DNA of 54,984 bases from Patescibacteria group bacterium (GCA_038065475.1 JBBTQY010000009.1:1-54984), one strand, 5' to 3'. Positions 12,332-36,005 are shown, counted from the stretch's first letter. Notes: generated from the sequence alone by a model not told the origin. Translations and numbers: made by a program.

Positions 12332-12790
12332 ATGAATAAAAATATTACATTTCTCCTAGTAGGGCTCTTAGTTATTGCGGGTGGCCTCATTGTTTGGCAA
12401 AGTGCAGCGCCTGAGGAACATGACATGGCGGCGATGCCAAATGATACTGCCAATGCACTCGAAGGAGCCAATGAAACTATGTCGCCGCCGACAGCGGTCG
12501 AAACAGCACCAGGCGTCAAAGAATTTACCGTAACTGGTACAAACTTTGCCTTTGATGCAACCGCACTCACCGTCAAAAAGGGCGACACGGTACGTATCAC
12601 TTTCAAAAATATGGAAGGCTTCCATGATTGGAAGATCGATGAGTTTAGTGCCGCAACCACGCAGTTCAAATCACCGGGTGAAGAGACAATTGAGTTTGTA
12701 GCAGACAAGGCGGGTTCATTCGAATACTATTGTTCGGTAGGCAAGCATCGAGCGATGGGCATGAAGGGCACGCTCACCGTCACTGAATAA
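12332..12790 (+). CDS. Cupredoxin (plastocyanin/azurin-like type 1 blue copper protein)
   Basis: N-terminal signal anchor. The C-terminal ligand set is GFHDW...YYCSVGKHRAMGM, matching His...Cys-x2-His-x2-4-Met. Confidence 0.75.
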   Translation: MNKNITFLLVGLLVIAGGLIVWQSAAPEEHDMAAMPNDTANALEGANETMSPPTAVETAPGVKEFTVTGTNFAFDATALTVKKGDTVRITFKNMEGFHDWKIDEFSAATTQFKSPGEETIEFVADKAGSFEYYCSVGKHRAMGMKGTLTVTE

Positions 12791-12805
12791 TTTTCCGAAT
12801 CCAAA

Positions 12806-12838
12806 ACAAAAATCCGCCCAAGGGCGGATTTTTGTTTT
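12806..12838. terminator. Bidirectional terminator between the convergent cupredoxin and peroxiredoxin genes
   Basis: aaaaatccgcc-caag-ggcggattttt palindromic hairpin with A/T runs on both sides. Confidence 0.65.
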
Positions 12839-12851
12839 CTAAAAGTTCTAT

Positions 12852-13400
12852 TTATTTACGAGCTCGCAAATACTTGAGCATAGTCTCTGCGTCACTAACT
12901 TCAAACGGATCTGTCGGACAGTTGTCTGTAAAGCCGGCCTCCGCAAAGATTTCTTTGATCTCGCCGTCTTCAACGTACATACTGTACCTCCATGAACGCT
13001 CGCCAAAGCCAAGGTCGTCTTTTTTAACCATCATACCCATCTGGCGAGTAAATTCGCCCGAACCGTCAGGGATAAGTTTTACTTTGCTGGCGTTTTGGTG
13101 CTTGCCCCACTGGTTCATGACAAACGCATCATTGACGCTCAGACAATATACCTCGTCTACGCCAAGTTTTTTGAACTCGTCATATGATTTTTCATACCCA
13201 GGCAAATGAGTTGATGAACACGTAGGTGTAAACGCACCCGGAAGCGCGAAAACTACTACTTTTTTGCCTTTGAAAAATTCATCTGACGTGACGTCTTGCC
13301 AGCGGTACGGATTCTCGCCGCCTACTGATTCATCGCGTACGCGGGTTTTAAACGTGACGGATGGCACACGTGTTGGTGTTTTTGGTGTAACTTCTGCCAT
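12852..13400 (-). CDS. Peroxiredoxin, Prx5-like subfamily
   Basis: The PGAFTPTCS peroxidatic-Cys motif is typical of Prx5/AhpC-TSA proteins. Confidence 0.8.
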
Positions 13401-17080: not shown

Positions 17081-18010
17081 TTAGCGAAAGATTACCGTGC
17101 CGCTATCAAATTTGAGATCCAAGATAAGCTCACCGCGAGAAGTAAACTTGTAGTGTGATGTATTTTTGAGTAACTCGGCAAACTCACCTTCCTGTGAGCC
17201 CTCACAATATTTTTTTGTAGAAACCATATCGCTAAATATGATCGCGCCGTCAGCTCCCACCGTATAATTACCTCCTAACTGATTACAATCGGTGGTGGCA
17301 GCAAAACGCCCAAACTCGAGAAATTCGAGAGTGAAAGCTTCTTTTTGCTTTGGTTTGATCATGCGTTCATCATTATACAAAGCCTCTATCCACAACCATA
17401 CTTTCATATCAAGCTTCATGACGTCGGGATCAGCCTCTCCCTCAAACTCGGGCACGAGTTCACCAAACTGTTTTGACACCGCATTGTATTTGAGATGCAA
17501 ACTCTCAGCGACCGTGGGCTCTGCTGTCATAGGCTCGCCGCGCTCGCGATCGGCGTAGTTGACGATTACCACACCGCGGCGATATTCGGTCGTTTGCGGG
17601 GCAATGCGATCACCAATCAATACAGCCTCGGTGCCTTCGTATCCTGTATCTGTCTTGATGGCGCCCACCAGATAGAAAAAGGTACCACTGCCACCCCCCT
17701 CTTGCGTCAGCAAAAATACAATGTCTGATATACCGTCACCATTGAGATCTCCCTCAGCCTCATTGCCAAAATATTTAGTAACAATTTTCGATGCCGAGCC
17801 TGGGGCTGCCTCAATCTCCGAGACACCATCAGTTAGCGTAACCGCTCGCCCTTCTATTGTATACGTAATATCTTTATATCCTTTCTGAAAACCAGCATCG
17901 CCCTGCTTTTCGCGGTAAATATATTCATTGAGAAGAAAGAAGCCGCCTACTAATATTAGTATGACGATAAGACCTACGGCACGCCCTACAAAAAATTTTC
18001 TAGGAGTCAT
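17081..18010 (-). CDS. Secreted or membrane-anchored protein with an N-terminal Asp/Gly-rich repeat (FG-GAP/VCBS-like) domain and a C-terminal META (HslJ-like) domain
   Basis: Signal anchor, DLNGDGISDIVFLL...GGGSGTFFYLVGAIK, and C-terminal TTDCNQLGGNYTV...TKKYC META-like motifs. Paralogue of the next gene. Confidence 0.6.
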   Translation of the reverse strand: MTPRKFFVGRAVGLIVILILVGGFFLLNEYIYREKQGDAGFQKGYKDITYTIEGRAVTLTDGVSEIEAAPGSASKIVTKYFGNEAEGDLNGDGISDIVFLLTQEGGGSGTFFYLVGAIKTDTGYEGTEAVLIGDRIAPQTTEYRRGVVIVNYADRERGEPMTAEPTVAESLHLKYNAVSKQFGELVPEFEGEADPDVMKLDMKVWLWIEALYNDERMIKPKQKEAFTLEFLEFGRFAATTDCNQLGGNYTVGADGAIIFSDMVSTKKYCEGSQEGEFAELLKNTSHYKFTSRGELILDLKFDSGTVIFR

Positions 18011-18047: not shown

Positions 18048-18593
18048 CTACGATGCTACCTCGTCAAATTTTTGCTCTGCGGTATTGTATTCGAGATACA
18101 TGCTCTTACCCACACTTGGCGAGGTAGTCATGGGTTCGGTCGGCCTGCGGACAGCGTAATTGACAATCACGCGCTCGTCGCGAAACTCGGTCGTTTGCGG
18201 GGCAATGCGATCACCCAAAAGTACGCCGGGTGTGCCGCGCCAACCACCCTCTTCTTTGATAGCGCCGACTGCATAATAAAATGTGCCCGAACCGCCTGGA
18301 TTATGCGTGACCAAAAATACCATATCAGTATCACCATCGCCGTCAACATCTGCCTCAACTGAATTGCCGAAATATCGAGTGGTAACCATGGTGGCCGAGC
18401 CGGGCGCTACAGGCACTTCTGATACGCCGTCTTTGAGTGTTACAAATTTGCCGTCAATCAAAAAGCGGCTATTTTTATAATCAAAGCCAAGACCTTCGTC
18501 TTTTTGCTTTCTTCCATAGATAAATGAATTGAACGCCCAAAAAAGAAGCGCCAAAAGGATAAGAACACCTATAACCCAAAGGAGTTTTTTCAT
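18048..18593 (-). CDS. Shorter paralogue of the previous protein (N-terminal domain only)
   Basis: It shares the signal anchor, DVDGDGDTDMVFLV...GGSGTFYYAVGAIK and ...LGDRIAPQTTEFRD...VIVNYA blocks with 17081-18010. Confidence 0.6.
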   Translation of the reverse strand: MKKLLWVIGVLILLALLFWAFNSFIYGRKQKDEGLGFDYKNSRFLIDGKFVTLKDGVSEVPVAPGSATMVTTRYFGNSVEADVDGDGDTDMVFLVTHNPGGSGTFYYAVGAIKEEGGWRGTPGVLLGDRIAPQTTEFRDERVIVNYAVRRPTEPMTTSPSVGKSMYLEYNTAEQKFDEVAS

Positions 18594-18632: not shown

Positions 18633-18674
18633 ACGAAAAAGAAAAGGGGCGGAGCGCATGTGCGCTCCGCCCCG
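18633..18674 (-). terminator. Rho-independent terminator closing the GC-rich three-gene island
   Basis: ggggcggagcgca-tg-tgcgctccgcccc perfect hairpin. On the minus strand it is followed by cttttcttttt. Confidence 0.65.
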
Positions 18675-18698
18675 CTTGGGACGATCCCGGCCGCCTTG

Positions 18699-19175
18699 CT
18701 AGGCGGACTCGGGAGTGGGATGGGCGGCACTGCTCGGAGGCAGTGCGCGCCGGAGGAAAGGATCCAGGAGAGCAGCGAGGCCGGCGGCCGACCCCATACC
18801 CTCGACGCCGAGAACGTGTACCTGCTTGGGCACGAGCCGCGCCAACAGCTGGCGCTTGATGCCGGCTGCACGGATCTTGTGATCCGTGTCGAGACCCTCG
18901 ATGCTCCCCGCGATGGCCGCAGAGAGCGCTGCCTTGGCGCGAAGCCCTGCGATCTCGCGCATGAGCTCCGTCGCCTTTTCCTCGAGCTGCCTACGGGCAC
19001 CGATGAGGACGGACTGGCGGTTGCCGTGTACCGCCTCGCCCACAGTAGTCTCGAGACTGATGCGCTCCGACTCGAGACCGATGGCCGCCGAGCGCGCCGC
19101 ACGCGTCTGTTGCCGCATGTTGCCCTCGACGGTCTTGACCGCACCTTCGAGCTGGACGGTACGAGTCTCGGTCAT
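18699..19175 (-). CDS. Coiled-coil hypothetical protein, third gene of the GC-rich island. The preferred start is the ATG preceded by AAGGAGG (MTETRTVQLE...); the ORF track uses an upstream GTG at 19205
   Basis: GC3-rich codon usage. Perfect SD aaggagg with a 6-nt spacer. Ala/Glu/Arg-rich helical sequence. Confidence 0.5.
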   Translation of the reverse strand: MTETRTVQLEGAVKTVEGNMRQQTRAARSAAIGLESERISLETTVGEAVHGNRQSVLIGARRQLEEKATELMREIAGLRAKAALSAAIAGSIEGLDTDHKIRAAGIKRQLLARLVPKQVHVLGVEGMGSAAGLAALLDPFLRRALPPSSAAHPTPESA

Positions 19176-19205
19176 GGCCGCCACCTCCTTGAGCAGCGTA
19201 CGCAC

Positions 19206-20051
19206 CTACTCGAGATCGTCGAGCGTGTTGTTGCTGCCTTCCGGAAGCGTGGCGCTCACCACCGTCACACCGTAGAACTCGAGGTGGCGGTTGAGCTCGG
19301 CGACCACATTCTTGAGACGGTCACGGCCCGTGAACTTGACGCGCGCATCGCCGATCGAAGTGATCATGCGAAGCGCGATGTAGCTCGAGTAGAGCTCGAT
19401 AAGCTTCATGATGCCGACGGGACTTGAGTTGCTCGTGAACACCGCCGGATTCGTGATACGGAACGTGATCTGAAAGCCCAGCACCACCGAGGCGAAGTCG
19501 CCGGTGAGGTTGGCGTTGGATGTCTTCACCACCTGGTCTCGGAGCGAGACCAGGTACGGAGCGAAGCTCGAGAAGTTCGGCAGCCAGGTACGCCCCGGCT
19601 GAGCCGTGCGCTGCTCGTCCGGCTTGCCGAAGTTGCAGACCACGCCGCTGTAGCCGTCGGGGACGTCCACGCGGGAGTGGCGCAGGTAGGTGATGTAGAA
19701 GAGCATGATTCCGGCGAAGAGAGACCCGACGCTGACCATGTACCCGAGGGTACCCGGCAGCACCGTGAAGAAGAAGATCGCGAGCAGGATGGGACCGGCA
19801 CCACCGAGATCGCGGCGATCTGGGATGAACGTGAGGATCTTCTCCTGATCCACCCCCTGGAAGCTTGCTCCCTGGCCTGAACCCTTGCCCGCAGCGCGCT
19901 CGGAGATGGTGGTGACCATACCCGAGATGCGCTCACGAATGGCGCCCTCCACGCTTGCAGCAGCCACCGAGAGCTCGCCCGATGCGGCTTCGGCGACGTC
20001 GTTGCTGAGCGCGTGAAGCGCTCCTTTGATTCTTTCTGAAGCCCTTCTCAT
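19206..20051 (-). CDS. SPFH (band-7/stomatin-like) membrane protein. Preferred start MNMRRASERIKG... follows AAAGGAG; the ORF track extends to 20186
   Basis: Two TM helices. SPFH-like core VPDGYSGVVCNFGKP...QPGRTWLPNFSSFAPYLVSLRDQVVKT...LTGDFASVVLGFQITFRITNP, aligned by eye to the stomatin/HflK pattern. Confidence 0.55.
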   Translation of the reverse strand: MRRASERIKGALHALSNDVAEAASGELSVAAASVEGAIRERISGMVTTISERAAGKGSGQGASFQGVDQEKILTFIPDRRDLGGAGPILLAIFFFTVLPGTLGYMVSVGSLFAGIMLFYITYLRHSRVDVPDGYSGVVCNFGKPDEQRTAQPGRTWLPNFSSFAPYLVSLRDQVVKTSNANLTGDFASVVLGFQITFRITNPAVFTSNSSPVGIMKLIELYSSYIALRMITSIGDARVKFTGRDRLKNVVAELNRHLEFYGVTVVSATLPEGSNNTLDDLE

Positions 20052-20067
20052 GTTCATGACTCCTTTG

Positions 20068-21768
20068 TCAGGCTGCAGCGGCAGTCGGGGCGTTGCCCGC
20101 CTCGACTCCCGCACGTTCTGCGATCTGAGCGACACGCTGCATGACCTCGTCGGGTGAGAAGCCCTTCGTCGAGATCCCAGTGTCACCCGAGATCTTGGCG
20201 AGCTCTCCGGCGAGCGCCGTCAGGTTGTCGTCGACCTTGATGCCATCTGCTCGCTTGCTGATCTCTTCGAGTCTGCTGGTGGAAGCCTCTGCGACCGCAG
20301 CCAGCTTGGCTGCGTCGGGACGAAGAACTTGAAGCGCAGCGATGGTACCGCTGCGCTTGAGGATTCCCTCGAGCACGTCGAAGCTCGGGAAGATGGCGTC
20401 TTCCGTGGGTGACGTGACCCAGACGTCCGGGATCTCCGGTACGTACTGATCCAGGTTCTCCTCGACCGCGTCGTAGACGGCCTCGAGCTCACGGATGTAT
20501 CGCTCGAGGCCCGCCGTGTCGACCCCTTGCGCACGCACTTCGGCGAGCAGGGCGTCGATGGTTGCGACCATGTTGGCGATGTGCCCGGCCGCGATGTTCT
20601 CCATGGCCCTGCACTTCGCCTCCACGATCGAGGTCATGTTGGCATCGTTGGAGAGGGTGGCCGTGATGGCCTCCAACTCCTTGATGATGCGAACGACCTC
20701 GAGAACCGCCAGCTTCTTACCGGCGACAGCCGCGCTGATCTCCTCCTCGATCTCGTCCCTGCGGATGCTCTGCAGGGTCTCGGTCGCCTGGATGAGACGC
20801 ACGAGCGACGAGACGAGAGGTAGGGCGAGTGTGCTGATGAGCTCCGAGCCTGCGAGGCTCCCGAGTGGGATGTGATCGACGATCTCGATCCCGTAGTCGG
20901 CAGCAAGAGGCTGGAGGCTCCCTAGAACCCGATTGCGATCCGGGTTCGGTCCTTCGGAGAGGTCGAATCCGGAGATGTCGAGCTCACCGATGTCGGAGAG
21001 CCGCTCGAGCAATTCCACCGAAAGGGCAGAGCTGTCGAGCTGAGCCAGGCGAGTGGTGATGCTCTCGGTATCGCTGGCCGCGGCGGGCAAGCCCGCCGGC
21101 GTGATGTTGAACCGCGTGAAGCCGTTCGAGCGTACGCCCTGGATCATGTCCTGGACGGCGCTCGCATAGCGCTTGCCGACCTGCGCCAGGAACGTGGCGA
21201 ACCCACCGGCCGCGAGCAATCGACGGCTGTCGACGACGCGCAGCACGAGGGTTCCCGGATAGGTGAAGCTGATGGAATCGGTGGTCATGCCCTCGACCGG
21301 ATCCATCTCCAGCACGAAGGGCTTGGTTGAGACCGCGGCGTATGGCCGGATGCGGGGATCGAGCACGATCGCCCACTCACCCGGCCGGATCGTCTTGACG
21401 ATCTTGTCGTACTTGGTGAGATGGATTTCGGTGCCCGGCTGCCCGACCGTAATGCCAGAACGCGCGATCGAGAAGGCCGTGTAGATGCCGAAGATGACGA
21501 TCGCGAGGATGCCGTTGACCCAGCCGAACATCTGCCACCCTCGGATGCCGTCGAGTGCCTCGTACTCGGGCAGCCACCAGAACGGCTGCTGCGCGAAGAG
21601 TACACAGACGACGAGCACCAAGAGCGCAGCGACGCGGAGGGCGTTGCCGATGAGGTGGAGCGCTTGCATCTCGAAGTACGCGATGCCGACGGTTTCCCCA
21701 TCCTTTTCCTTCCCGACCTGCTTCAAGGCGCCGTGGAACGGCGCCTTGGCTTCGGTGATTCCCTTCAT
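20068..21768 (-). CDS. Flotillin-like protein: N-terminal TM hairpin, SPFH domain, long Ala/Glu-rich coiled-coil C-terminus
   Basis: GQPGTEIHLTKYDKIVKTIRPGEWAIVLDPRIRPYAAVSTKPFVLEMDP...TTDSISFTYPGTLVLRVVD SPFH-like core, followed by ~300 aa of helical repeats. GC-rich codon usage. Confidence 0.55.
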   Translation of the reverse strand: MKGITEAKAPFHGALKQVGKEKDGETVGIAYFEMQALHLIGNALRVAALLVLVVCVLFAQQPFWWLPEYEALDGIRGWQMFGWVNGILAIVIFGIYTAFSIARSGITVGQPGTEIHLTKYDKIVKTIRPGEWAIVLDPRIRPYAAVSTKPFVLEMDPVEGMTTDSISFTYPGTLVLRVVDSRRLLAAGGFATFLAQVGKRYASAVQDMIQGVRSNGFTRFNITPAGLPAAASDTESITTRLAQLDSSALSVELLERLSDIGELDISGFDLSEGPNPDRNRVLGSLQPLAADYGIEIVDHIPLGSLAGSELISTLALPLVSSLVRLIQATETLQSIRRDEIEEEISAAVAGKKLAVLEVVRIIKELEAITATLSNDANMTSIVEAKCRAMENIAAGHIANMVATIDALLAEVRAQGVDTAGLERYIRELEAVYDAVEENLDQYVPEIPDVWVTSPTEDAIFPSFDVLEGILKRSGTIAALQVLRPDAAKLAAVAEASTSRLEEISKRADGIKVDDNLTALAGELAKISGDTGISTKGFSPDEVMQRVAQIAERAGVEAGNAPTAAAA

Positions 21769-21944
21769 CTTGTTTGCCTGTTTCCTTCCCCTTTTTCAAG
21801 GTGTCTTGGCGCACTACCCCTTTGGGAGTTTGCGCAATTGATCTAAAGAACTTTTAGCATATTTTTATATATTTGTCAATATAAAAATATCAAAAAGGCC
21901 TCATAAACAAGAGGTTTTTAGCAAGGACTATTTTCTAATCACAC

Positions 21945-22358
21945 CTAAACAATACCCGGGCTCTTTGCTGCCGCCTGAATAACTTTCTTGAGTACTGGCA
22001 GATTGATATCTTCGAGCTTCTTAAATCTGATGCAGCTTTTACCTACACTTACCTTTCCCAGTTCTTTTTTATATTTTTCAGCAAGATACGCTTTACCATC
22101 AAGCGCGCAAACATAGATGCTCACATAATTTTTCTGATTTGCGAGCGCTACCACCGGCCAATCAATAATTTCTTTTTTATAGTTTTTATACTTAAATGAT
22201 CCGTACCCCAGCATGTTGTACGCCATGTGTGCTTTGAGCTTGGGTGATGATTTTTGTATAAACGCATGCAAAAATGCAATGAGCTTTTTGCGATCTGCGG
22301 GGACTGCCGCCAGATACTGCGCTACGGTCTTGGCTTTGACCGGCCGGAACATGTTCAT
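21945..22358 (-). CDS. DUF1801 (YdhG-like) domain protein
   Basis: Typical length. ...VAQYLAAVPADRKK...CIRFKKLEDINLPVLKKVIQAA resembles the DUF1801 pattern. Confidence 0.6.
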   Translation of the reverse strand: MNMFRPVKAKTVAQYLAAVPADRKKLIAFLHAFIQKSSPKLKAHMAYNMLGYGSFKYKNYKKEIIDWPVVALANQKNYVSIYVCALDGKAYLAEKYKKELGKVSVGKSCIRFKKLEDINLPVLKKVIQAAAKSPGIV

Positions 22359-22615
22359 CCCGTTAGAGAAAAGAAGCGCTTTAGTCTATTTTTTAGATAT
22401 CTTTTGCCCATGCCTGATTTTAGATATTTTTCTCTAGCAAAAGCATCATCCTTATTTAAAGACGCTTCGTAATATAAAAGCTCGAAAGGACCGCGACCTT
22501 TGGTTGATCTTGTTTGACCAGAATTATGTTCATTAAAGCGCTTCCGTAAATCGCTCGTACATCCAGTATACCAATTCTTACTTTTCTTGCTGCGTAAAAG
22601 ATAAATATACCACAT
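22355..22615 (-). CDS. GIY-YIG nuclease family protein (UPF0213-like)
   Basis: WYIYLLRS...NWYTGCTSDLRKRFNEHNSG...ELLYYE matches GIY-YIG motifs. 86 aa. Confidence 0.75.
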   Translation of the reverse strand: MWYIYLLRSKKSKNWYTGCTSDLRKRFNEHNSGQTRSTKGRGPFELLYYEASLNKDDAFAREKYLKSGMGKRYLKNRLKRFFSLTG

Positions 22616-28157: not shown

Positions 28158-29705
28158 TTAGAGTGCACCTATCGAAGCCAAGCTATTTAATCTATCTACA
28201 CCTTCATCAAGTTTTGCGATAAAATCCTTTATTGAGAAATTGTAAATATCTAATCCGTCTTTATGCTTAATAAAAGCAGCCCAACGTACAGTATCTTGAT
28301 GAATATTCGGAGCAATAAAGAAAGTTACTGTATTGGGGTATTGGTTCCTAAAACTCTCCAAGTGTCTACTGATCGGCGGCATTTCGCGCGATACCTGAGC
28401 TGCTCCATTTAAAAGCGTTACCTCAAGAAGCGTCGTCTCTTCGTTCTCATAGCATTCAATATCCGCTCCATTCCCTGGAGCATGTGACGAGGGTAAGCCT
28501 TCGTCATCAGAAATATAGTTAGGCTTTACCCTTGCCGACGGGATTCTACTCAATACGGCAAGTGAGGTAAGAAACTCGAGTCGGAGAGGACTTGGGATAA
28601 GTGCGAGCACCTCGTCGGATGAGGATGGGCTACTGGTTGTGAGCTTAAGAATTTCGCCCTTGATAGTGTCCCAACTAAAGTGATTAATCCACTTCTGCAA
28701 AAGCTGGTTTTCCTGTTCTACGCTGGTCTCATACACGCGCTCAATGGAGATAAGTTGTTCGTCTACAGTGGAGATATAGTCAAAATATTCTCGCTCAGTT
28801 GAATATGTGTCGTACTGAGCATATTTCTCAATTACGTAATTTACCTTGGCCTCCTCTTTTTTGTTGATATCTATAAACTGCCCATAGCCGCGTACGGTTA
28901 TCAGTCCAGTGAGGCGCATTTTGCGAAGAAAGTCGTCAGGATACTCAAGCATTATTGTCTTGTCGGGTTTCGATGCGTGACGACCTCCAGTTAATGCGTC
29001 TGCCTCGCGAAGAATAACCTCCCAACTCGGATCGTAACTATGCTCGGCACGGATTGCTTTGATTTTTTGGTAAAGAGCTTCAGCATCATTATCACGCCAC
29101 GTAAGGAGTAGTGGGATTTCAAGCTTTGTTATACCTGCTCCATTAAAATCAGAATCAGCGTTCAATTTTTTAATGACTTGCAAGAGCAGTATCAGGGGTG
29201 CGTTTTCGTTAGATACGCGCCGCAATGGATTTTTACGTTGATACTTGGCAAAAGCATTGAGAAATGCCTGCTGCTCAAACTCCGGGTGTTCAGTATCAGC
29301 GAGCTTAAGCCCAACTTGAGAGAACTTAATTTGCTCGCCCATATTGTAGTAAACAAAACCAAGCTCTTTAGCTATTTTGAGATAAGTATCAAATCTTGAA
29401 GGCCAACCTTTATCAAAACCGGCTTCTTTATGATTCTGTGGGTTATCTCTCATTACAACAGCAAGCTCCTCATCTGAAAGGAGCTGGACTTGCTTCCATT
29501 TACTTTTGACTACCGCACTCACATTTACGGGCTTATAAAGACCGGCTCTGATAAGCTCTCCGACAATTTCCTCTGCCAATTCATTGGTTAAGACCCTACC
29601 ATCGAACTTCTTAAGCAGGGCAAGCATACCCTTCAATCGTTCAGGGTTTCTGAGCGTTGTAGTAAATAGAAGTGGCTTATACTGGTTCTGGCGACGTATA
29701 GGCAT
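28158..29705 (-). CDS. Candidate Type II (IIS-like) restriction endonuclease
   Basis: 515-aa ORF 2 nt downstream of two m6A DNA methyltransferase genes, with the same AT-rich composition. There is no recognisable catalytic motif by eye; the call rests on context and size. Confidence 0.45.
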   Translation of the reverse strand: MPIRRQNQYKPLLFTTTLRNPERLKGMLALLKKFDGRVLTNELAEEIVGELIRAGLYKPVNVSAVVKSKWKQVQLLSDEELAVVMRDNPQNHKEAGFDKGWPSRFDTYLKIAKELGFVYYNMGEQIKFSQVGLKLADTEHPEFEQQAFLNAFAKYQRKNPLRRVSNENAPLILLLQVIKKLNADSDFNGAGITKLEIPLLLTWRDNDAEALYQKIKAIRAEHSYDPSWEVILREADALTGGRHASKPDKTIMLEYPDDFLRKMRLTGLITVRGYGQFIDINKKEEAKVNYVIEKYAQYDTYSTEREYFDYISTVDEQLISIERVYETSVEQENQLLQKWINHFSWDTIKGEILKLTTSSPSSSDEVLALIPSPLRLEFLTSLAVLSRIPSARVKPNYISDDEGLPSSHAPGNGADIECYENEETTLLEVTLLNGAAQVSREMPPISRHLESFRNQYPNTVTFFIAPNIHQDTVRWAAFIKHKDGLDIYNFSIKDFIAKLDEGVDRLNSLASIGAL

Positions 29706-29706
29706 G

Positions 29707-30618
29707 TTAGTAGTTGGTGATTAGTACCTCGGTTATCTTTTTCTTAGTGTTGTCGTGATAGCTTATATAGTTGCTATCTATAGGAAAAACGTTGTAATCC
29801 TGCATCCAAGCTAGCAATTTTTCGTTCTTTCTACCATTGTAAGTAGTGATATTAGAGAGGGCGAACTTGATCCCCAATTTATTGAGCCCTGTGAGGATTT
29901 CCAATAAATCGGCCTCCTCTTTCTCGCCCCAGAACTTATTGTACTCACTTGCGGAGATAAGATAGGGCGGATCGACGTATACGAAGTCATTTTTTTTGAG
30001 CCTCAAGCTACCTATGAACTTTTTAAAATCTTGGCTGTAGAGTTTTATGTCCTTATCTCTTACCGTTGAGAAGTAAGTTTGGAGAGCTTGCAGGACATTT
30101 TGGTTAAAGTCCACGTTGCCGACAGGAATATTGAACTCACCGCTCTTGTTGAAGCGAAGCATGCGGTTAAAGCCGTATATGAGCAGAAGGTATAGGGTGA
30201 GAGGGTCTTTCTTTTTTGTCTTGTTGTAATCCGCCTTGAGCGCACCATATCCTTTGCGGTTGAACTCGGCATAATAAGTTTTGACCCACTTCTTTTTGAG
30301 CGCGCGGGGCACCACGTTCTCGAATACGGATCGGGACAAATTATAGTGCTCCAACATTGTCCGAACGCGCTTCATGAGACCCTTTTCTTTTGCCACTTGG
30401 CTTATTAAAAACTTGTGTAGGGAGATAATGTTCTTGTCTATATCGTTGAGAGCATAGTGTCGCGCCTCTATATTAAGGAAAACACTCCCGCCGCCTAAAA
30501 AGGGCTCAACGAAAGTGTTTATTTCCTTCGGGAAGTGCTTTTTAATTTTCCTAACTAGCTTATACTTGTCGCCAACATAAAAGAATGGCGAGCGGTTAAA
30601 CCGTTTCTCTGGGCTCAT
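29707..30618 (-). CDS. Dam-class (alpha-group) N6-adenine DNA methyltransferase
   Basis: FVEPFLGGGSVFL (motif I/X) near the N-terminus and VDPPY (motif IV) near the C-terminus. Confidence 0.85.
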   Translation of the reverse strand: MSPEKRFNRSPFFYVGDKYKLVRKIKKHFPKEINTFVEPFLGGGSVFLNIEARHYALNDIDKNIISLHKFLISQVAKEKGLMKRVRTMLEHYNLSRSVFENVVPRALKKKWVKTYYAEFNRKGYGALKADYNKTKKKDPLTLYLLLIYGFNRMLRFNKSGEFNIPVGNVDFNQNVLQALQTYFSTVRDKDIKLYSQDFKKFIGSLRLKKNDFVYVDPPYLISASEYNKFWGEKEEADLLEILTGLNKLGIKFALSNITTYNGRKNEKLLAWMQDYNVFPIDSNYISYHDNTKKKITEVLITNY

Positions 30619-31877
30619 ATTACTTTAGTAATAAATAGCCATTCTTGGTGATTATCAAAGTTGGTTTTGCCTGCATTAAAGTACGTGTGGTCTTTTTTAA
30701 ACACCTTTGTCTTACCCTTCGCACTCAAAATCCGACGGATATCCGCCAATTCAATCTTATTTTTAGAAGAACTGCTCTTGGAATTGTAGGTGTTGTTGTA
30801 GGACACCACGATATATTTCGCCTTGAGGTTATCAATGAGGTCGGCAAAAACTACAGGGGCTTTTATGCGACAGTAGTCGCTCATATTTTCCTCCGGGCGT
30901 TTCAGTGCAACGCCGAAAAGCTTGGGTTTATCGGCAAGGGTTAGAGTCTCAAGTACGTGATAGAAACGGCTGTACTGGCGAGAATTGTACGGCGGGTCTA
31001 TGTAAACAACATCAGTGGTCATTTTGCGAGCGAGCTCGTTAGCGTCCTCTCGGCAAATGGAAACGCTCGCCGCTTTGATGAGTGGCTCTATGAGACGGAA
31101 GCTAAACTTCTTGTCGGCGACACTCTTGCCGAAAAAGGCGTCGTAGTGTCCTACGGTATTGGCAATTTTATCCGCTGAATATAGAAGCGAGGTCAGAAGT
31201 ATGTAGTATTCCTTATTGTTTAACTCTCCCCGGTGTTCCTCCAAGTCGTTGCGTATATGACCGATCAGTTTTGCAGAGGTGGTAGTGAAGTATTTGCCGC
31301 CGAAACTCTTGGAAAAAAAAGATGAACGAGCATCATTTGGGGTAAGCGAGTTGTAGTAGCAAACAAAATCCAATACCTTTTGCCTGTTGTAAGGTTCTTG
31401 TGCAAAAAAGCCCTGGTAAGCCGCGTAGTTTGAGTGTAGTAAATCGTTGAGAATGATTTTCTTATACAACCGAGCGGCGCGAGCAGAGATAACACCCGTG
31501 CCAGCAAAAATATCGGCAAAACTCTCGCCCTTACATTCCTTTTTTATGTGTTCAAAAATCCAATCAAGAAGCTTTGATTTACTTCCGATATATCGTCTAT
31601 TTTCTATATCAATTGTTGGTAATGGAAGTAAAGCCCCAAAACCACCCTCTATGGCTTGCTCAAAAGAAGAATCTATCAAGGGCATATCCCTATAATAACA
31701 CTGACTCGTGCTATGATGGTTTGCAGCTTGGGATAACTTATTTTTTATATCTCCCTGGCCAACATACGGGGCATGTGGGCTGGGTTTTGGTTTTTTGAAA
31801 TTGATGCCCGCGGCTACAGGTCTTCCATACACCTTCATGTCTGAAACAAAAATCACTACCCTCTTTGGCGGATACAA
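30615..31877 (-). CDS. Second D12-class N6-adenine DNA methyltransferase. The real start is probably an internal Met near 31685
   Basis: FADIFAGTGVISARAA (AdoMet-binding motif I) and IDPPYNSRQY (motif IV). A 4-nt overlap joins it to the downstream Dam-like gene. Confidence 0.8.
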   Translation of the reverse strand: MYPPKRVVIFVSDMKVYGRPVAAGINFKKPKPSPHAPYVGQGDIKNKLSQAANHHSTSQCYYRDMPLIDSSFEQAIEGGFGALLPLPTIDIENRRYIGSKSKLLDWIFEHIKKECKGESFADIFAGTGVISARAARLYKKIILNDLLHSNYAAYQGFFAQEPYNRQKVLDFVCYYNSLTPNDARSSFFSKSFGGKYFTTTSAKLIGHIRNDLEEHRGELNNKEYYILLTSLLYSADKIANTVGHYDAFFGKSVADKKFSFRLIEPLIKAASVSICREDANELARKMTTDVVYIDPPYNSRQYSRFYHVLETLTLADKPKLFGVALKRPEENMSDYCRIKAPVVFADLIDNLKAKYIVVSYNNTYNSKSSSSKNKIELADIRRILSAKGKTKVFKKDHTYFNAGKTNFDNHQEWLFITKVI

Positions 31878-33214: not shown

Positions 33215-33985
33215 TTATTTACACGCAAAAATGATCTCGTGGTTTTTTTGGTCGCCGAGGGTTACCTCTGTAGTTTTTTTGAGTAGTGATTGGCCGTTGA
33301 ACGTAACATCTTTGATGCCGGTAGGAATTTGAAATGACAAGTTGAGCTTGAGCGCACTCAAATAAAGAAATCCTGACTGCGTACCATCAATGGTGACGGT
33401 GACAGCGGGCAGTACCGCTACTGCTGACTGGCCACTCTCGATTGGTTCTTTTGGCAGCTGAAGACCCGGCAGCGGTATAGGTAATGACCCGGGTATCATG
33501 GGGCCGCAGCCTTGGTTTTTGATAGTCATATTCACCGATGTCGCCTGTAATGTTACTGCGGCACCTACGGCCACAATAGTAATAATACCCATAGGCCCTT
33601 TGGCTGCAGCAAATATTTTACCCCAGAAAGATTTTTGCGAGAGCGCATGCTCCCCGCCCGGTGTATTAAGCTCCGCCTCGACGCGCTTGATCTCACTGCC
33701 AAGATCTTTCCAAAACCGAATCAAGAGCAAGAGGGCCTTCTTGCGTTTTTTTTGATCTTCCGTATTTTCGGGCAAGTGTTCGGCCGATAGCTCGATATAT
33801 TCGCTATTATCTATCTTTTCATACTGTGAGAAGGCGTCATCGGCCGCCTTGAGGCGCTCATCAAGCCGCGGGTGGATGCCGCGAATAAGCTCACGCGCTG
33901 AGCTCATCTTTTGACGCGAAGTGGTATCGCCCACAAACAACGCGTGGGCGGCCTCGAGCCGCGCTTTGGCATCTTTATACTTCAT
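33215..33985 (-). CDS. Hypothetical protein with a central TM helix
   Basis: 256-aa ORF. It starts 9 nt downstream of the small Cys-rich ORF, so the two are probably co-transcribed. Confidence 0.45.
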   Translation of the reverse strand: MKYKDAKARLEAAHALFVGDTTSRQKMSSARELIRGIHPRLDERLKAADDAFSQYEKIDNSEYIELSAEHLPENTEDQKKRKKALLLLIRFWKDLGSEIKRVEAELNTPGGEHALSQKSFWGKIFAAAKGPMGIITIVAVGAAVTLQATSVNMTIKNQGCGPMIPGSLPIPLPGLQLPKEPIESGQSAVAVLPAVTVTIDGTQSGFLYLSALKLNLSFQIPTGIKDVTFNGQSLLKKTTEVTLGDQKNHEIIFACK

Positions 33986-34259: not shown

Positions 34260-35189
34260 TCACCTGCTGGCGAGCGTTCTTTCGATGATCTCCGTCACCT
34301 CCTTGGGCGTGAGCCGACTACCGCTCACACGTGGACTACCGATGACGAAATCACCGCCGCCCCATAGGTCGCCGATCGTAGGACCCTCTGCCTCATTGAG
34401 TCGCGCGCAAAACTTTGGGATCGGAAACGGCACGAACTGTGACGATCGGCAGACCACGTAGCCATACCGGCCATTGGGCAGCTCGCGGACCACCACGAAC
34501 GCCTTGTTGCCATCGGCGAAGACTGCAAGACGTGCATTGGCACCCATCTCCCGCACCATGATCCAGCCCGAATGCCGCGCCACGATGTCATAGCGTGTAT
34601 CGAGCTTGATGGCGTCCGCCTTGCCCGCGACATACGCGAGCACCCGCTGCTCGACATCGAGAATCACTTGCGCGAACTCGTCGGCACGACGATGATCGAG
34701 CCGACCCGAAACGCGGAAGCGATGATAAGGGTTGAACATCCACATCACCTGGTGGAGCGTGCCGAGATCGCGCGGGAATGGATAAGCGCCCGCCGTCGTA
34801 TCGAGCATGTCTTCCATGAACACGAGGCGATTGATGAGTGGATTCATCGTGCCCGTTACGAGATGCGCGTGACGCAGGAGCGTAATCGAGAGACAGACAT
34901 CCTCATCACAATCATTGACGAAGACATTGGCATCGAATGCTCCCGTCTCGTCCGAGAATGCCTCGACCAAACCTTGGCGCAACGCCATGAGAACCTGCGC
35001 GCAGGTAGCGCGTGTCTCAAGTCGCGAGACGCCATCGTGATGGTTGAAGTTGGCCCATGGACCCTGAGGATTGAAACGTGGCCCCTCCGACACGTAACCA
35101 TCGAGCGCAATTGAGCGCGGGCGTGCATGCGTCTGAAAAGTGCGCCAACGTACTGGAATCTTTTTGGGATCCACATACAAATTGATCAT
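34260..35189 (-). CDS. Hypothetical protein, compositionally GC-enriched relative to its neighbours
   Basis: 309-aa ORF with clean codon periodicity and its own strong terminator. No domain recognised by eye. Confidence 0.55.
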   Translation of the reverse strand: MINLYVDPKKIPVRWRTFQTHARPRSIALDGYVSEGPRFNPQGPWANFNHHDGVSRLETRATCAQVLMALRQGLVEAFSDETGAFDANVFVNDCDEDVCLSITLLRHAHLVTGTMNPLINRLVFMEDMLDTTAGAYPFPRDLGTLHQVMWMFNPYHRFRVSGRLDHRRADEFAQVILDVEQRVLAYVAGKADAIKLDTRYDIVARHSGWIMVREMGANARLAVFADGNKAFVVVRELPNGRYGYVVCRSSQFVPFPIPKFCARLNEAEGPTIGDLWGGGDFVIGSPRVSGSRLTPKEVTEIIERTLASR

Positions 35190-35339: not shown

Positions 35340-36005
35340 TTATTTCTTCTTTGCTTTTTTGGGGGCTACTGCCTTTTTGGCTGGAGCCTTCTTGGCGGGC
35401 GCTTTTTCTTTTGGCGCCTCGGCTGCGGGTTTTGCAGTTTCTTTTGGTGCAAGAAGCGTGATCAGTTTATCAAGCTTGGCATTAAGAGCGTTGAACTGTT
35501 GTGTGTAATCTGCACCTCGAGAACCGCCCTTGTCAGTAAACTTGCGGTCATCAAAGCTGCGCTTTGGGCGTTCGTCGCGTGATGGGCCGTCGAGTGAAAG
35601 GTCACCACCAGCGCCAGCACTACCAAAGCAATCATTGCAATAAGTTGGGCGTCCGCCGGTTGGCAAAAATGGCACTTCGCACTTTTTGCCACAATTGCTG
35701 CAAGTAGCTGAATACATGCGACGCTCTTCGAAGTTTCTGCCACCACGATCTTTGCGGTCAAAATTACGTCCGCCATCGCGCTCAGATCCGCCGTCGCGTT
35801 CTTTATCAAAACAGTCACTGCAATATACGGGGCGCTCGCCCGTAGGACGAAAAGGTACCTGACACTGCTTGCCACACTTGCCGCAAATAGCATCATGCAT
35901 CTGGGGGCGCTCAGAGCGTCCGCCAAAGCCGCCTCGCTTGCCGAATCTATCCCCGCCTCCTCGGTTGTTTTTGTTGAAATAGGCCATATATATAGTAGAT
36001 GACAA
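35340..36005 (-). CDS. Tandem CxxC-x17-CxxC zinc-ribbon protein with Arg/Gly-rich linkers and a Lys/Ala-rich histone-H1-like C-terminal tail. Putative nucleic-acid-binding protein
   Basis: Two copies of C-x2-CGK-x-C-x-VPF-x-PTG-x-RP-x-YC-x-DCF with exactly 17 residues between the CxxC pairs. NRGGGDRFGKRGGFGGR glycine-arginine stretches and a KPAAEAPKEKAPAKKAPAKKAVAPKKAKKK tail. Confidence 0.65.
   Translation of the reverse strand: MSSTIYMAYFNKNNRGGGDRFGKRGGFGGRSERPQMHDAICGKCGKQCQVPFRPTGERPVYCSDCFDKERDGGSERDGGRNFDRKDRGGRNFEERRMYSATCSNCGKKCEVPFLPTGGRPTYCNDCFGSAGAGGDLSLDGPSRDERPKRSFDDRKFTDKGGSRGADYTQQFNALNAKLDKLITLLAPKETAKPAAEAPKEKAPAKKAPAKKAVAPKKAKKK

Follow-up and report, generated by a model that had tools for sequence, protein, structure and literature searches.

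Results

A GC-rich island in a Patescibacteria contig carries the genes for two predicted SPFH proteins

We analyzed a 54,984-nucleotide stretch of DNA (GCA_038065475.1, JBBTQY010000009.1:1-54984; hereafter, the window), which belongs to a Patescibacteria (Candidate Phyla Radiation, CPR) contig from Hainich groundwater (well H41, 0.1 um fraction), and here describe an island of high guanine-plus-cytosine (GC) content within it that carries a cassette for a pair of predicted SPFH proteins, termed A and B. The true genes of the cassette all lie on the minus strand. The 566-aa A subunit is encoded by the open reading frame (ORF) g1 (21768..20068; NCBI locus tag AAB367_02705, "hypothetical protein"). 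Downstream lies g2 (20057..19209; NCBI MEK7649841.1, "SPFH domain-containing protein"), which comprises the N-terminal 283 codons of the B subunit, and then g3 (19205..18699), which comprises the C-terminal 168 codons of B, predicted to form a long wall helix and a disordered tail. Between the two, translation across the stop places an in-frame TAG (19208-19206) at residue 284 of a 452-codon frame. Two start codons are available to g2, ATG 20057 (283 aa) and ATG 20051 (281 aa), and the latter appears likelier, being at the best spacing, 8 nt, from the AAAGGAG at 20066-20060. By itself, g3 is translatable as 158 aa, from ATG 19175-19173 to TAG 18701-18699, with AAGGAGGTG upstream at 19190-19182, and it is listed in GenBank as MEK7649840.1 (locus tag AAB367_02695, "hypothetical protein"). 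The co-directional ORFs of about 566, 282, and 158 aa reported in an initial annotation of this DNA were therefore recovered, on the minus strand, at 566, 283/281, and 158 aa.

A TAG codon divides a single B gene

The initial annotation counted three genes, the last of them an independent gene for a coiled-coil protein. The second and third ORFs share a frame, are divided only by the TAG, and the third opens at the very next codon; g3 encodes the last third of the second SPFH protein. All homologs of g2 are 436-470 aa in length, and g2 and g3 together are colinear with these single proteins. The 452-codon read-through frame aligned without gaps to 25 homologs, with 37-44% identity on either side of the stop. 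In the resulting 26-sequence alignment the column occupied by the TAG is hypervariable (T/K/E/S/V/G/N/Q/I/A) and sits between an invariant Leu-Glu and (Ile/Val)-Arg, and the closest homolog (L019) has GAG at this position, so that one G-to-T change is enough to produce the TAG. The site corresponds to a 3-residue linker between the last helix of the SPFH domain (277-282) and a long helix (286-407). In 11 genome loci, 2 Logan/European Nucleotide Archive (ENA) contigs, and 3 full JGI loci, one uninterrupted ORF encodes the B partner, and among 16 cassettes with both genes readable the in-frame stop is unique to the window copy, B being intact in the 15 others, which come from at least five phyla. 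These results show that the second and third genes are one B gene of ~450 aa cut by a TAG.

The signals ahead of g3 have a corresponding origin. The AAGGAGG that had been taken for the Shine-Dalgarno (SD) sequence of a third gene, together with the ATG that follows it, is made of ancestral Lys-Glu-Val...Met codons, most homologs reading AAA/AAG GAG ATC ... ATG. The part of B beyond the TAG keeps every residue that is invariant in the family, as judged against 25 intact homologs, and the ratio of post-TAG to pre-TAG identity is 0.82, similar to that of intact pairs (0.79 +/- 0.08), implying either that the mutation is recent or that selection still acts on the fragment. In this organism TAG serves as a normal stop codon, terminating 14 of 43 host ORFs as well as the B gene itself at 18701-18699, which makes recoding unlikely. 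Pyrrolysine insertion or another recoding of the TAG was also considered and rejected on the basis of this normal usage and the hypervariable column.

A single nonsense substitution, for which a change from GAG or AAG to TAG would suffice, has cut B exactly at the boundary between SPFH domain and helix. The helix part could plausibly be re-initiated as the 158-aa polypeptide, given a perfect SD arrangement (AAGGAGGTG-N6-ATG) that is assembled from pre-existing codons and places the ATG 10 codons past the stop.

The published gene calls at this locus differ from this structure. The ENA call has a 255-aa ORF on the wrong strand over g2 and g3 (window 18660-19427, plus strand, equivalent to 12342-13109 of locus L001), and this ORF, like the presentation of the two halves of B as two proteins in GenBank, is an annotation error stemming from high-GC DNA in which all frames are open.

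The island is a genuine and compositionally distinct transcription unit

The abrupt GC island reported initially was borne out by both windowed GC content and GC content at third codon positions (GC3). From 18646 to ~21830 the GC content is 0.64, and in 300-bp windows it ranges from 0.59 to 0.70 between 18650 and 21800, with both flanks at 0.37-0.53. Across the whole 55-kb window, the 3150-bp interval of highest GC begins at 18651 (0.636), compared to a median of 0.465, a maximum of 0.520 elsewhere, and 0.47 and 0.45 in the two flanks. GC3 is 0.83, 0.82, and 0.78 in the three island ORFs and 0.27-0.57 in 41 of 42 host ORFs (host GC3, ~0.46). All six frames are open within the island, and shadow ORFs are stacked there, so that the pile of overlapping ORFs described earlier is reproduced in the ORF listing.

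A cumulative-GC walk placed the island edges at 18645 and ~21755, with the GC-rich 5' leader extending to ~21830. The left edge coincides with the intrinsic terminator of the cassette (18673..18636, minus strand), which consists of a hairpin (18673-18646) and a T-rich tail (18645-18636); the stem is 12-13 bp with 11 G-C pairs, the arms of the corresponding repeat (I9) are 13 nt and perfectly complementary, and the strong terminator previously assigned to the end of the unit is thereby upheld. The right edge is the GC-rich leader of g1 (21830..21769, minus strand), delimited from the sequence and the GC profile, in which a weak purine-rich ribosome-binding site (RBS), GGAAGGAAAC (21789-21780), is predicted. 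Upstream of this, the AT-rich spacer contains a possible host-derived promoter, read by eye on the minus strand (TTGACA at 21879-21874, a 17-nt spacer, and TAAAAG at 21856-21851). A consensus promoter scan made no call at this site, and we regard 21879-21851 as a candidate g1 promoter by inference. The island edges match one full transcription unit, from leader to terminator, within an intergenic spacer. The window contains no tRNA gene and no Rfam family, and thus no tRNA-linked integration site and no riboswitch.

An assembly chimera had been raised as one explanation for the compositional contrast. A 347-kb ENA contig (ERZ1292624) and Logan assemblies ERR3858121 and ERR3858120 all contain the island and 1-3 kb of host flank at either end with 100% identity, which extends over 5.4-6.5 kb across the junctions, and the three assemblies derive from separate runs and different assemblers. 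A 535-kb contig likewise encodes the island proteins, and each contig on record with the exact 181-aa protein that flanks the island also has the island. Because both junctions are identical across the three assemblies, a chimera is disfavored, and the GC island is genuine and no assembly artefact.

Both proteins are predicted to adopt an SPFH fold

The product of g2 matched the Pfam profile Band_7 (PF01145) at 37.3 bits (E 3.6e-9; cutoff, 23.6). Band_7 was detected at E<=0.01 in 8 of 15 A-family members and 9 of 26 B-family members, and the profile accordingly places B within the family and A at its margin. Profile searches of both families against PDB sequences found nothing significant, the best matches being stomatin PH1511 (E 0.24) and HflK (E 0.83), and a comparison of folds was therefore needed. 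NCBIfam and PADLOC yielded no usable family for the island ORFs, and a BFVD search returned generic Band-7 folds from giant viruses and phages only.

The AlphaFold2 model of g1 (mean pLDDT, 62; core, ~80) consists of a small N-terminal beta element, hydrophobic helices at ~39-57 and 84-106, an SPFH alpha/beta domain at ~106-301, and ~250 residues of long helices that include 308-437. In the model of fused B (mean pLDDT, 73), an N-terminal helix leads into a hydrophobic hairpin (87-127) that has an invariant Pro101 at its turn; an SPFH alpha/beta domain (129-282) comes next, and the chain ends in a single uninterrupted helix (286-407) and a disordered tail. Hydrophobic 19-mers were found at 39-57 and 84-106 in g1 and at 90-108 and 104-125 in B. 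In Foldseek searches of the PDB, the top matches of both models were SPFH-family and vault chains only, with a probability of 1.00. For g1 these were HflK/C (7vhq, chain 7vhq_G), stomatin (9oh9), and QmcA (8z5g), with E 8e-11 to 1e-10, and for g2 plus g3 stomatin (9z7u_B, E 1.5e-9) and HflK/C (E 3.2e-9); further matches included prohibitin (8rrh), erlin, and flotillin (9bq2). Together with the Band_7 match of g2, these model comparisons show an SPFH fold for both predicted proteins, as had initially been proposed.

Homologs of g1 are 37-43% identical to it over residues 1-556. In an hhalign comparison, A and B aligned in register over the SPFH domain (E 1.4e-4, probability 53%), consistent with the two being distant paralogs. 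Each family also has a near-invariant motif that is specific to the pair and lacking in canonical SPFH proteins: S-x-x-D-A-R-V-K-F-x-G-R-D at residues 234-246 of B (window ~19320-19358, minus strand), in a low-confidence loop of the model, and R-P-Y-A-A-V-S-T-K-P at residues 138-150 of A. These motifs are candidate subunit-interface or client/ligand-binding sites.

A and B form a strictly paired, rare family

Elsewhere, A followed directly by an intact 436-470-aa B was found in Sericytochromatia, Verrucomicrobiales, Salinivenus, Bryobacterales, Trueperaceae, and unclassified contigs, and the cassette is present in at least five phyla. The two genes are strictly adjacent at all loci, with an overlap of 1 or 4 nt in 9 of 12 pairs, and the identities between loci are correlated for A and B (r = 0.98). 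Homologous loci from different phyla had no third gene in common, and their neighborhoods vary from housekeeping genes (ProRS, PolA, TctABC) to one stretch rich in toxin-antitoxin and defence genes. Neither ftsH nor any other protease gene was present in the neighborhoods examined, and the absence of an NfeD partner noted in the initial annotation extends beyond the window, as none adjoins the cassette here or at homologous loci. The family is also very small: when 1.84 billion cluster representatives were scanned exhaustively with a profile, 44 representatives of A were found, ~21 of them full length, and no canonical abundant Band_7 protein was reached. The A subunit is "hypothetical" in all sources.

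In one cassette (L016, 8001-10652 of Truepera sp. CBDCDB010000008.1, a long-read metagenome-assembled genome), the match to A is confined to residues 118-167 and 233-415, and the sequence homologous to B is scattered over three frames. This fragmentation represents either a second independent decay or long-read indel errors.

The cassette appears to have been acquired horizontally

At every other locus the GC content of the cassette equals the local GC content (0.48-0.69); only in the window does it differ from its flanks, where the genes are typical of Patescibacteria. Two related Patescibacteria contigs (L017 and L018), with proteins 63-93% identical to the flanking proteins of the window, keep the gene order DUF1428, 3-dmu-9_3-mt ... 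META, Cupin_2, Redoxin, MacB/ABC/YknX, and neither has a homolog of the cassette (tblastn E > 0.3). These are the nearest syntenic relatives, and a strictly isogenic "empty site" was not found. Among all matches recovered, the cassette was present in no other Patescibacteria. The unameliorated GC3, the absence from syntenic relatives, and the host-matched GC content elsewhere bear out the earlier proposal of recent horizontal acquisition from a high-GC donor. The window cassette branches deeply and alone, at 37-46% identity to every other sampled cassette, pointing to an unsampled donor lineage of ~63-65% GC. From such a donor, a Paceibacteria-like host would have recently acquired the self-contained two-gene cassette, by transformation or illegitimate recombination, and would express it from a host promoter.

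The insertion point is intergenic, with a DUF1801 gene on one side and a 181-aa gene typical of the lineage on the other, within a variable spot extending from 3-dmu-9_3-mt to META to which the window adds GIY-YIG, DUF1801, and 181-aa genes. With a GC of 0.36 and a GC3 of 0.30, the stand-alone 86-aa GIY-YIG gene is much poorer in GC than the host; it runs into the start of DUF1801 (window 21945-22615, minus strand), and the equivalent interval of L017 has neither gene, indicating that the cassette landed in a variable hotspot of mixed-GC pieces. The 181-aa protein (18048-18593, minus strand) is paralogous to the N-terminal half of the 309-aa META-domain protein (17081-18010, minus strand); L017 and L018 each have one META gene, and both proteins match the same coordinates of it (63-73% identity), which points to a local partial duplication. 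A milder GC bump was observed at 34260-35189 (minus strand), where a 309-aa ORF with no Pfam hit has a GC content of 0.58 and a GC3 of 0.67. Its neighbors, a zf_Tbcl_2 gene (35340-36005) on one side and a 256-aa gene (33215-33985) on the other, lie immediately next to each other in L018, and the ORF is probably another foreign insertion.

The locus lacks signatures of a mobile element or a known defence system

A 9-bp inverted repeat had been described as bracketing the island and read as a possible mobile-element signature. The two arms match at 8 of 9 positions (GAAAAGGGG versus CCCCTTTTT, the true complement being CCCCTTTTC) and fall in the end of the terminator stem plus T-tail and in the g1 leader, respectively. 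An inverted repeat of at least 8 bp was present in 16% of shuffled junction pairs and 19% of real control pairs, and the bracketing repeat is a chance occurrence. The best direct repeat at the junctions was 7 bp (P 0.38), and no integrase, transposase, recombinase, or target duplication was present among the cassette junctions and neighbors. I14 (21828-21842 versus 22098-22112, 13/15) is another repeat pair, of a kind that occurs 64 times in 3.9 kb. The 3' hairpin was also considered as an integron attC site and rejected, since a perfect GC stem with a T-tail would be typical of a terminator and no R''/L'' architecture is apparent.

The suggestion that the island might relate to phage defence gained no support. 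PADLOC-DB v2 had no model match to the three ORFs, other than a chance hit of ZorA to g2 (E = 0.11, 9 bits), and there were no homologs in plasmid, phage, or IMG/VR collections. Approximately 6 kb from the island, the window encodes a restriction endonuclease of the AlwI family (515 aa) and, after it, two D12-class adenine methyltransferases (28158-31877, minus strand), and a PadR-PspC/LiaF-like pair lies between this restriction-modification system and the island.

Discussion

Interpretation of the locus

Based on the data presented above, it is likely that the locus reflects recent horizontal gene transfer (HGT) of a two-gene SPFH cassette whose products would form an alternating A/B scaffold and whose B gene is split by a TAG codon. 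Several points weigh against this interpretation. The support for the junctions stands at the level of assembled contigs; the "empty site" is approximate and the timing relative, as the relatives are only 63-93% identical at the protein level; and the search for a donor found a best homolog of only 43-46% identity. On the protein side, g1 scored 18.5 bits against Band_7, under the 23.6-bit cutoff, its structural model reaches only moderate confidence (mean pLDDT, 62), and the hhalign probability of 53% is a weak signal of paralogy between A and B. The alternating cage is drawn by analogy, and the positive-inside signal for its topology is weak. Finally, the nonsense codon may mean that the cassette is non-functional cargo, and an intact downstream ORF is weak evidence to the contrary in 64%-GC DNA with every frame open.

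With respect to the origin of the island, the abrupt compositional step at both edges and the metagenomic nature of the data are what one would expect if a high-GC fragment of another organism had been joined to a Patescibacteria contig during assembly. We give this almost no credence, given that the junctions and 1-3 kb of flank are identical in three assemblies, that the 347-kb and 535-kb contigs carry the island, and that its edges delimit a complete transcription unit inside an intergenic spacer. Even less credible is a native, vertically inherited cassette in a genome of heterogeneous GC content; the milder bump at 34.3-35.2 kb would fit such a landscape, but that bump is itself insertion-like relative to L018, L017 and L018 have no cassette, a GC3 of 0.8 is far beyond the host range, and the family is missing from other Patescibacteria in the matches recovered. 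That the cassette is an anti-phage or abortive-infection module, with an SPFH membrane sensor or effector spread by HGT, is improbable, if somewhat less so. Its patchy, HGT-like distribution over at least five phyla, the HepT/MNT, AAA_21-RloB, and NERD genes adjoining one homologous locus, and the AlwI-type restriction-modification system 6 kb away in the window would be in keeping with such a role. However, none of the ORFs matches a PADLOC model, the neighbors elsewhere are housekeeping genes (ProRS, PolA, TctABC), the cassette has no enzymatic effector domain in Pfam or NCBIfam, and no paper among those searched ties SPFH to "anti-phage defense".

The TAG itself admits two other explanations. 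Were it read through or recoded, by a suppressor tRNA, programmed readthrough, or an altered code, full-length B would still be made and the split would be only apparent, and the frame does run on perfectly past the stop. Alternative codes exist in some CPR lineages, with UGA being reassigned in Gracilibacteria and Absconditabacteria, but TAG is not known to be reassigned in Patescibacteria. Since TAG ends 14 of 43 host ORFs and the B gene itself, no tRNA gene lies within the window, and the hypervariable column indicates that no special residue is required, we consider readthrough very unlikely. Inactivation deserves more weight, and we regard it as a realistic possibility, albeit not the favored one: a recent uptake that is already decaying, with the TAG as the first pseudogenizing hit, neither fragment of B functional, and deletion ahead in a streamlined CPR genome. 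The stop occurs in the window copy only, of 16 readable cassettes, the host lineage has small genomes, the L016 cassette is likewise fragmented, and the leader RBS and promoter are weak. Conversely, the invariant residues are kept beyond the TAG, conservation there (0.82) is within the range of intact pairs (0.79 +/- 0.08), 3.1 kb have remained free of frameshifts, and the stop is followed by a perfect SD and ATG. This evidence is equally compatible with a very recent mutation, and inactivation concerns the present function of the cassette rather than its origin.

Proposed assembly

Each subunit is predicted to comprise a hydrophobic hairpin anchor, an SPFH domain, a very long helix, and a variable tail, and A and B would alternate in a membrane-attached ring or dome in which the long helices form the wall, fencing off a patch of membrane. 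Every solved heterodimeric SPFH complex alternates its two paralogs, with the SPFH domains on the membrane, the CC1 helices as the wall, and the divergent C-termini as the cap (PMC12624060). Given the strict pairing, translational coupling, co-evolution, and shared architecture of A and B, an alternating cage, by analogy to HflK/C, flotillin-1/2, prohibitin-1/2, and erlin-1/2, is the most likely arrangement. With hairpin anchors, the N-terminus would be expected on the membrane face that also bears the SPFH domain, and the dome, like those of stomatin and flotillin, is probably cytoplasmic. A published regression relates the number of subunits to CC1 length (subunits = 0.178 x length + 10.2; PMC12624060), and its extrapolation, with the whole 286-407 helix taken as CC1, would give a speculative ~32 subunits. 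Comparable accessory SPFH proteins often have no clear phenotype (PMC13086221).

A more far-reaching version of this model is that the family constitutes an undescribed, horizontally mobile class of two-subunit, hairpin-anchored, cytoplasm-facing SPFH cages of some 32 subunits, walled by helices of ~120 residues, and that the window copy is a natural three-piece version, in which the B membrane ring and the B wall helix are made as separate polypeptides that still join A. We consider this doubtful. If it were true, the high-GC DNA, being unameliorated, might have been taken up from the very cell that hosts the episymbiont and provide a clue to the identity of that host.

Significance

An HGT event and a nonsense mutation are ordinary biology, and current understanding is not overturned by either; the local copy may be decaying. 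The paired SPFH family is undescribed. Its strict pairing, translational coupling, and long helices make this very rare and unannotated pair tractable for structural work on SPFH cages. The locus also offers a clean, datable inter-phylum transfer into an ultra-small CPR/Patescibacteria genome, comprising a full transcription unit with no amelioration and no mobility genes. It bears on how CPR episymbionts acquire DNA, and the donor might point to their hosts. In addition, the annotation is corrected, in that two GenBank proteins are halves of one gene.

Comparison with known SPFH systems

Among characterized systems, HflK/HflC, which forms a 12+12 cage around FtsH (PDB 7vhq, 7wi3, 9cz2), shares with the cassette two adjacent, distantly paralogous SPFH genes that are presumably co-translated, as well as the order of SPFH domain, long helix, and variable C-terminal tail, and it is among the top Foldseek matches of both proteins. 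The cassette is nonetheless distinct at the family level, with 15.8 bits for the HflK equivalog TIGR01933 (cutoff, 159.4), 11.6 bits for PRK10930 (cutoff, 660), and no hit for g1. HflK and HflC have a single N-terminal transmembrane segment and a periplasmic SPFH domain, whereas the cassette proteins have two hydrophobic segments, a hairpin, and a dome predicted to be cytoplasmic. The cassette helices, at ~120 aa, are about twice as long as those of HflK/C, no ftsH or other protease gene is linked to the cassette in the neighborhoods examined, and HflK/C is widespread while the cassette family is extremely rare.

Flotillins (FLOT1/2, FloT/YuaG, FloA; SPFH2) share hairpin-type anchoring and a long coiled-coil wall and, in the case of eukaryotic FLOT1/2, hetero-oligomeric pairing. 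The flotillin structures 9bq2 and 9l3g are significant Foldseek matches, with only 11-17% identity in the structural alignments. The initial description of the locus as flotillin-like thus holds at the level of fold and architecture but not of family, as no Flot-domain or flotillin model in Pfam or NCBIfam matches the cassette at E<=1. Bacterial flotillin operons have an NfeD-like partner such as YuaF or YqiJ (PMC2636767), and no such partner was found at cassette loci. Stomatin and QmcA-YbbJ (SPFH1 plus NfeD; PDB 9oh9, 9z7u, 8z5g) gave the best template-modeling scores over the SPFH domain plus helix (TMt 0.55-0.62 for g1) and share a re-entrant hairpin with a conserved proline, corresponding to the invariant Pro101 of B. 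In contrast to stomatins, which are homo-oligomers and typically paired with NfeD, the cassette has two paralogous subunits, no NfeD, and much longer helices.

The cassette also resembles the small, undocumented prokaryotic subfamilies SPFH6-12, which are patchily distributed, attributed to lateral transfer, poorly conserved in domains that standard models miss, and without NfeD (Hinderhofer et al. 2009, PMC2636767). The same survey detected almost no residual signal in GC content or codon usage, implying transfers that "happened quite some time ago" (PMC2636767). The cassette is likened to these subfamilies by description only, and is set apart from them by a transfer signal that is still unameliorated.

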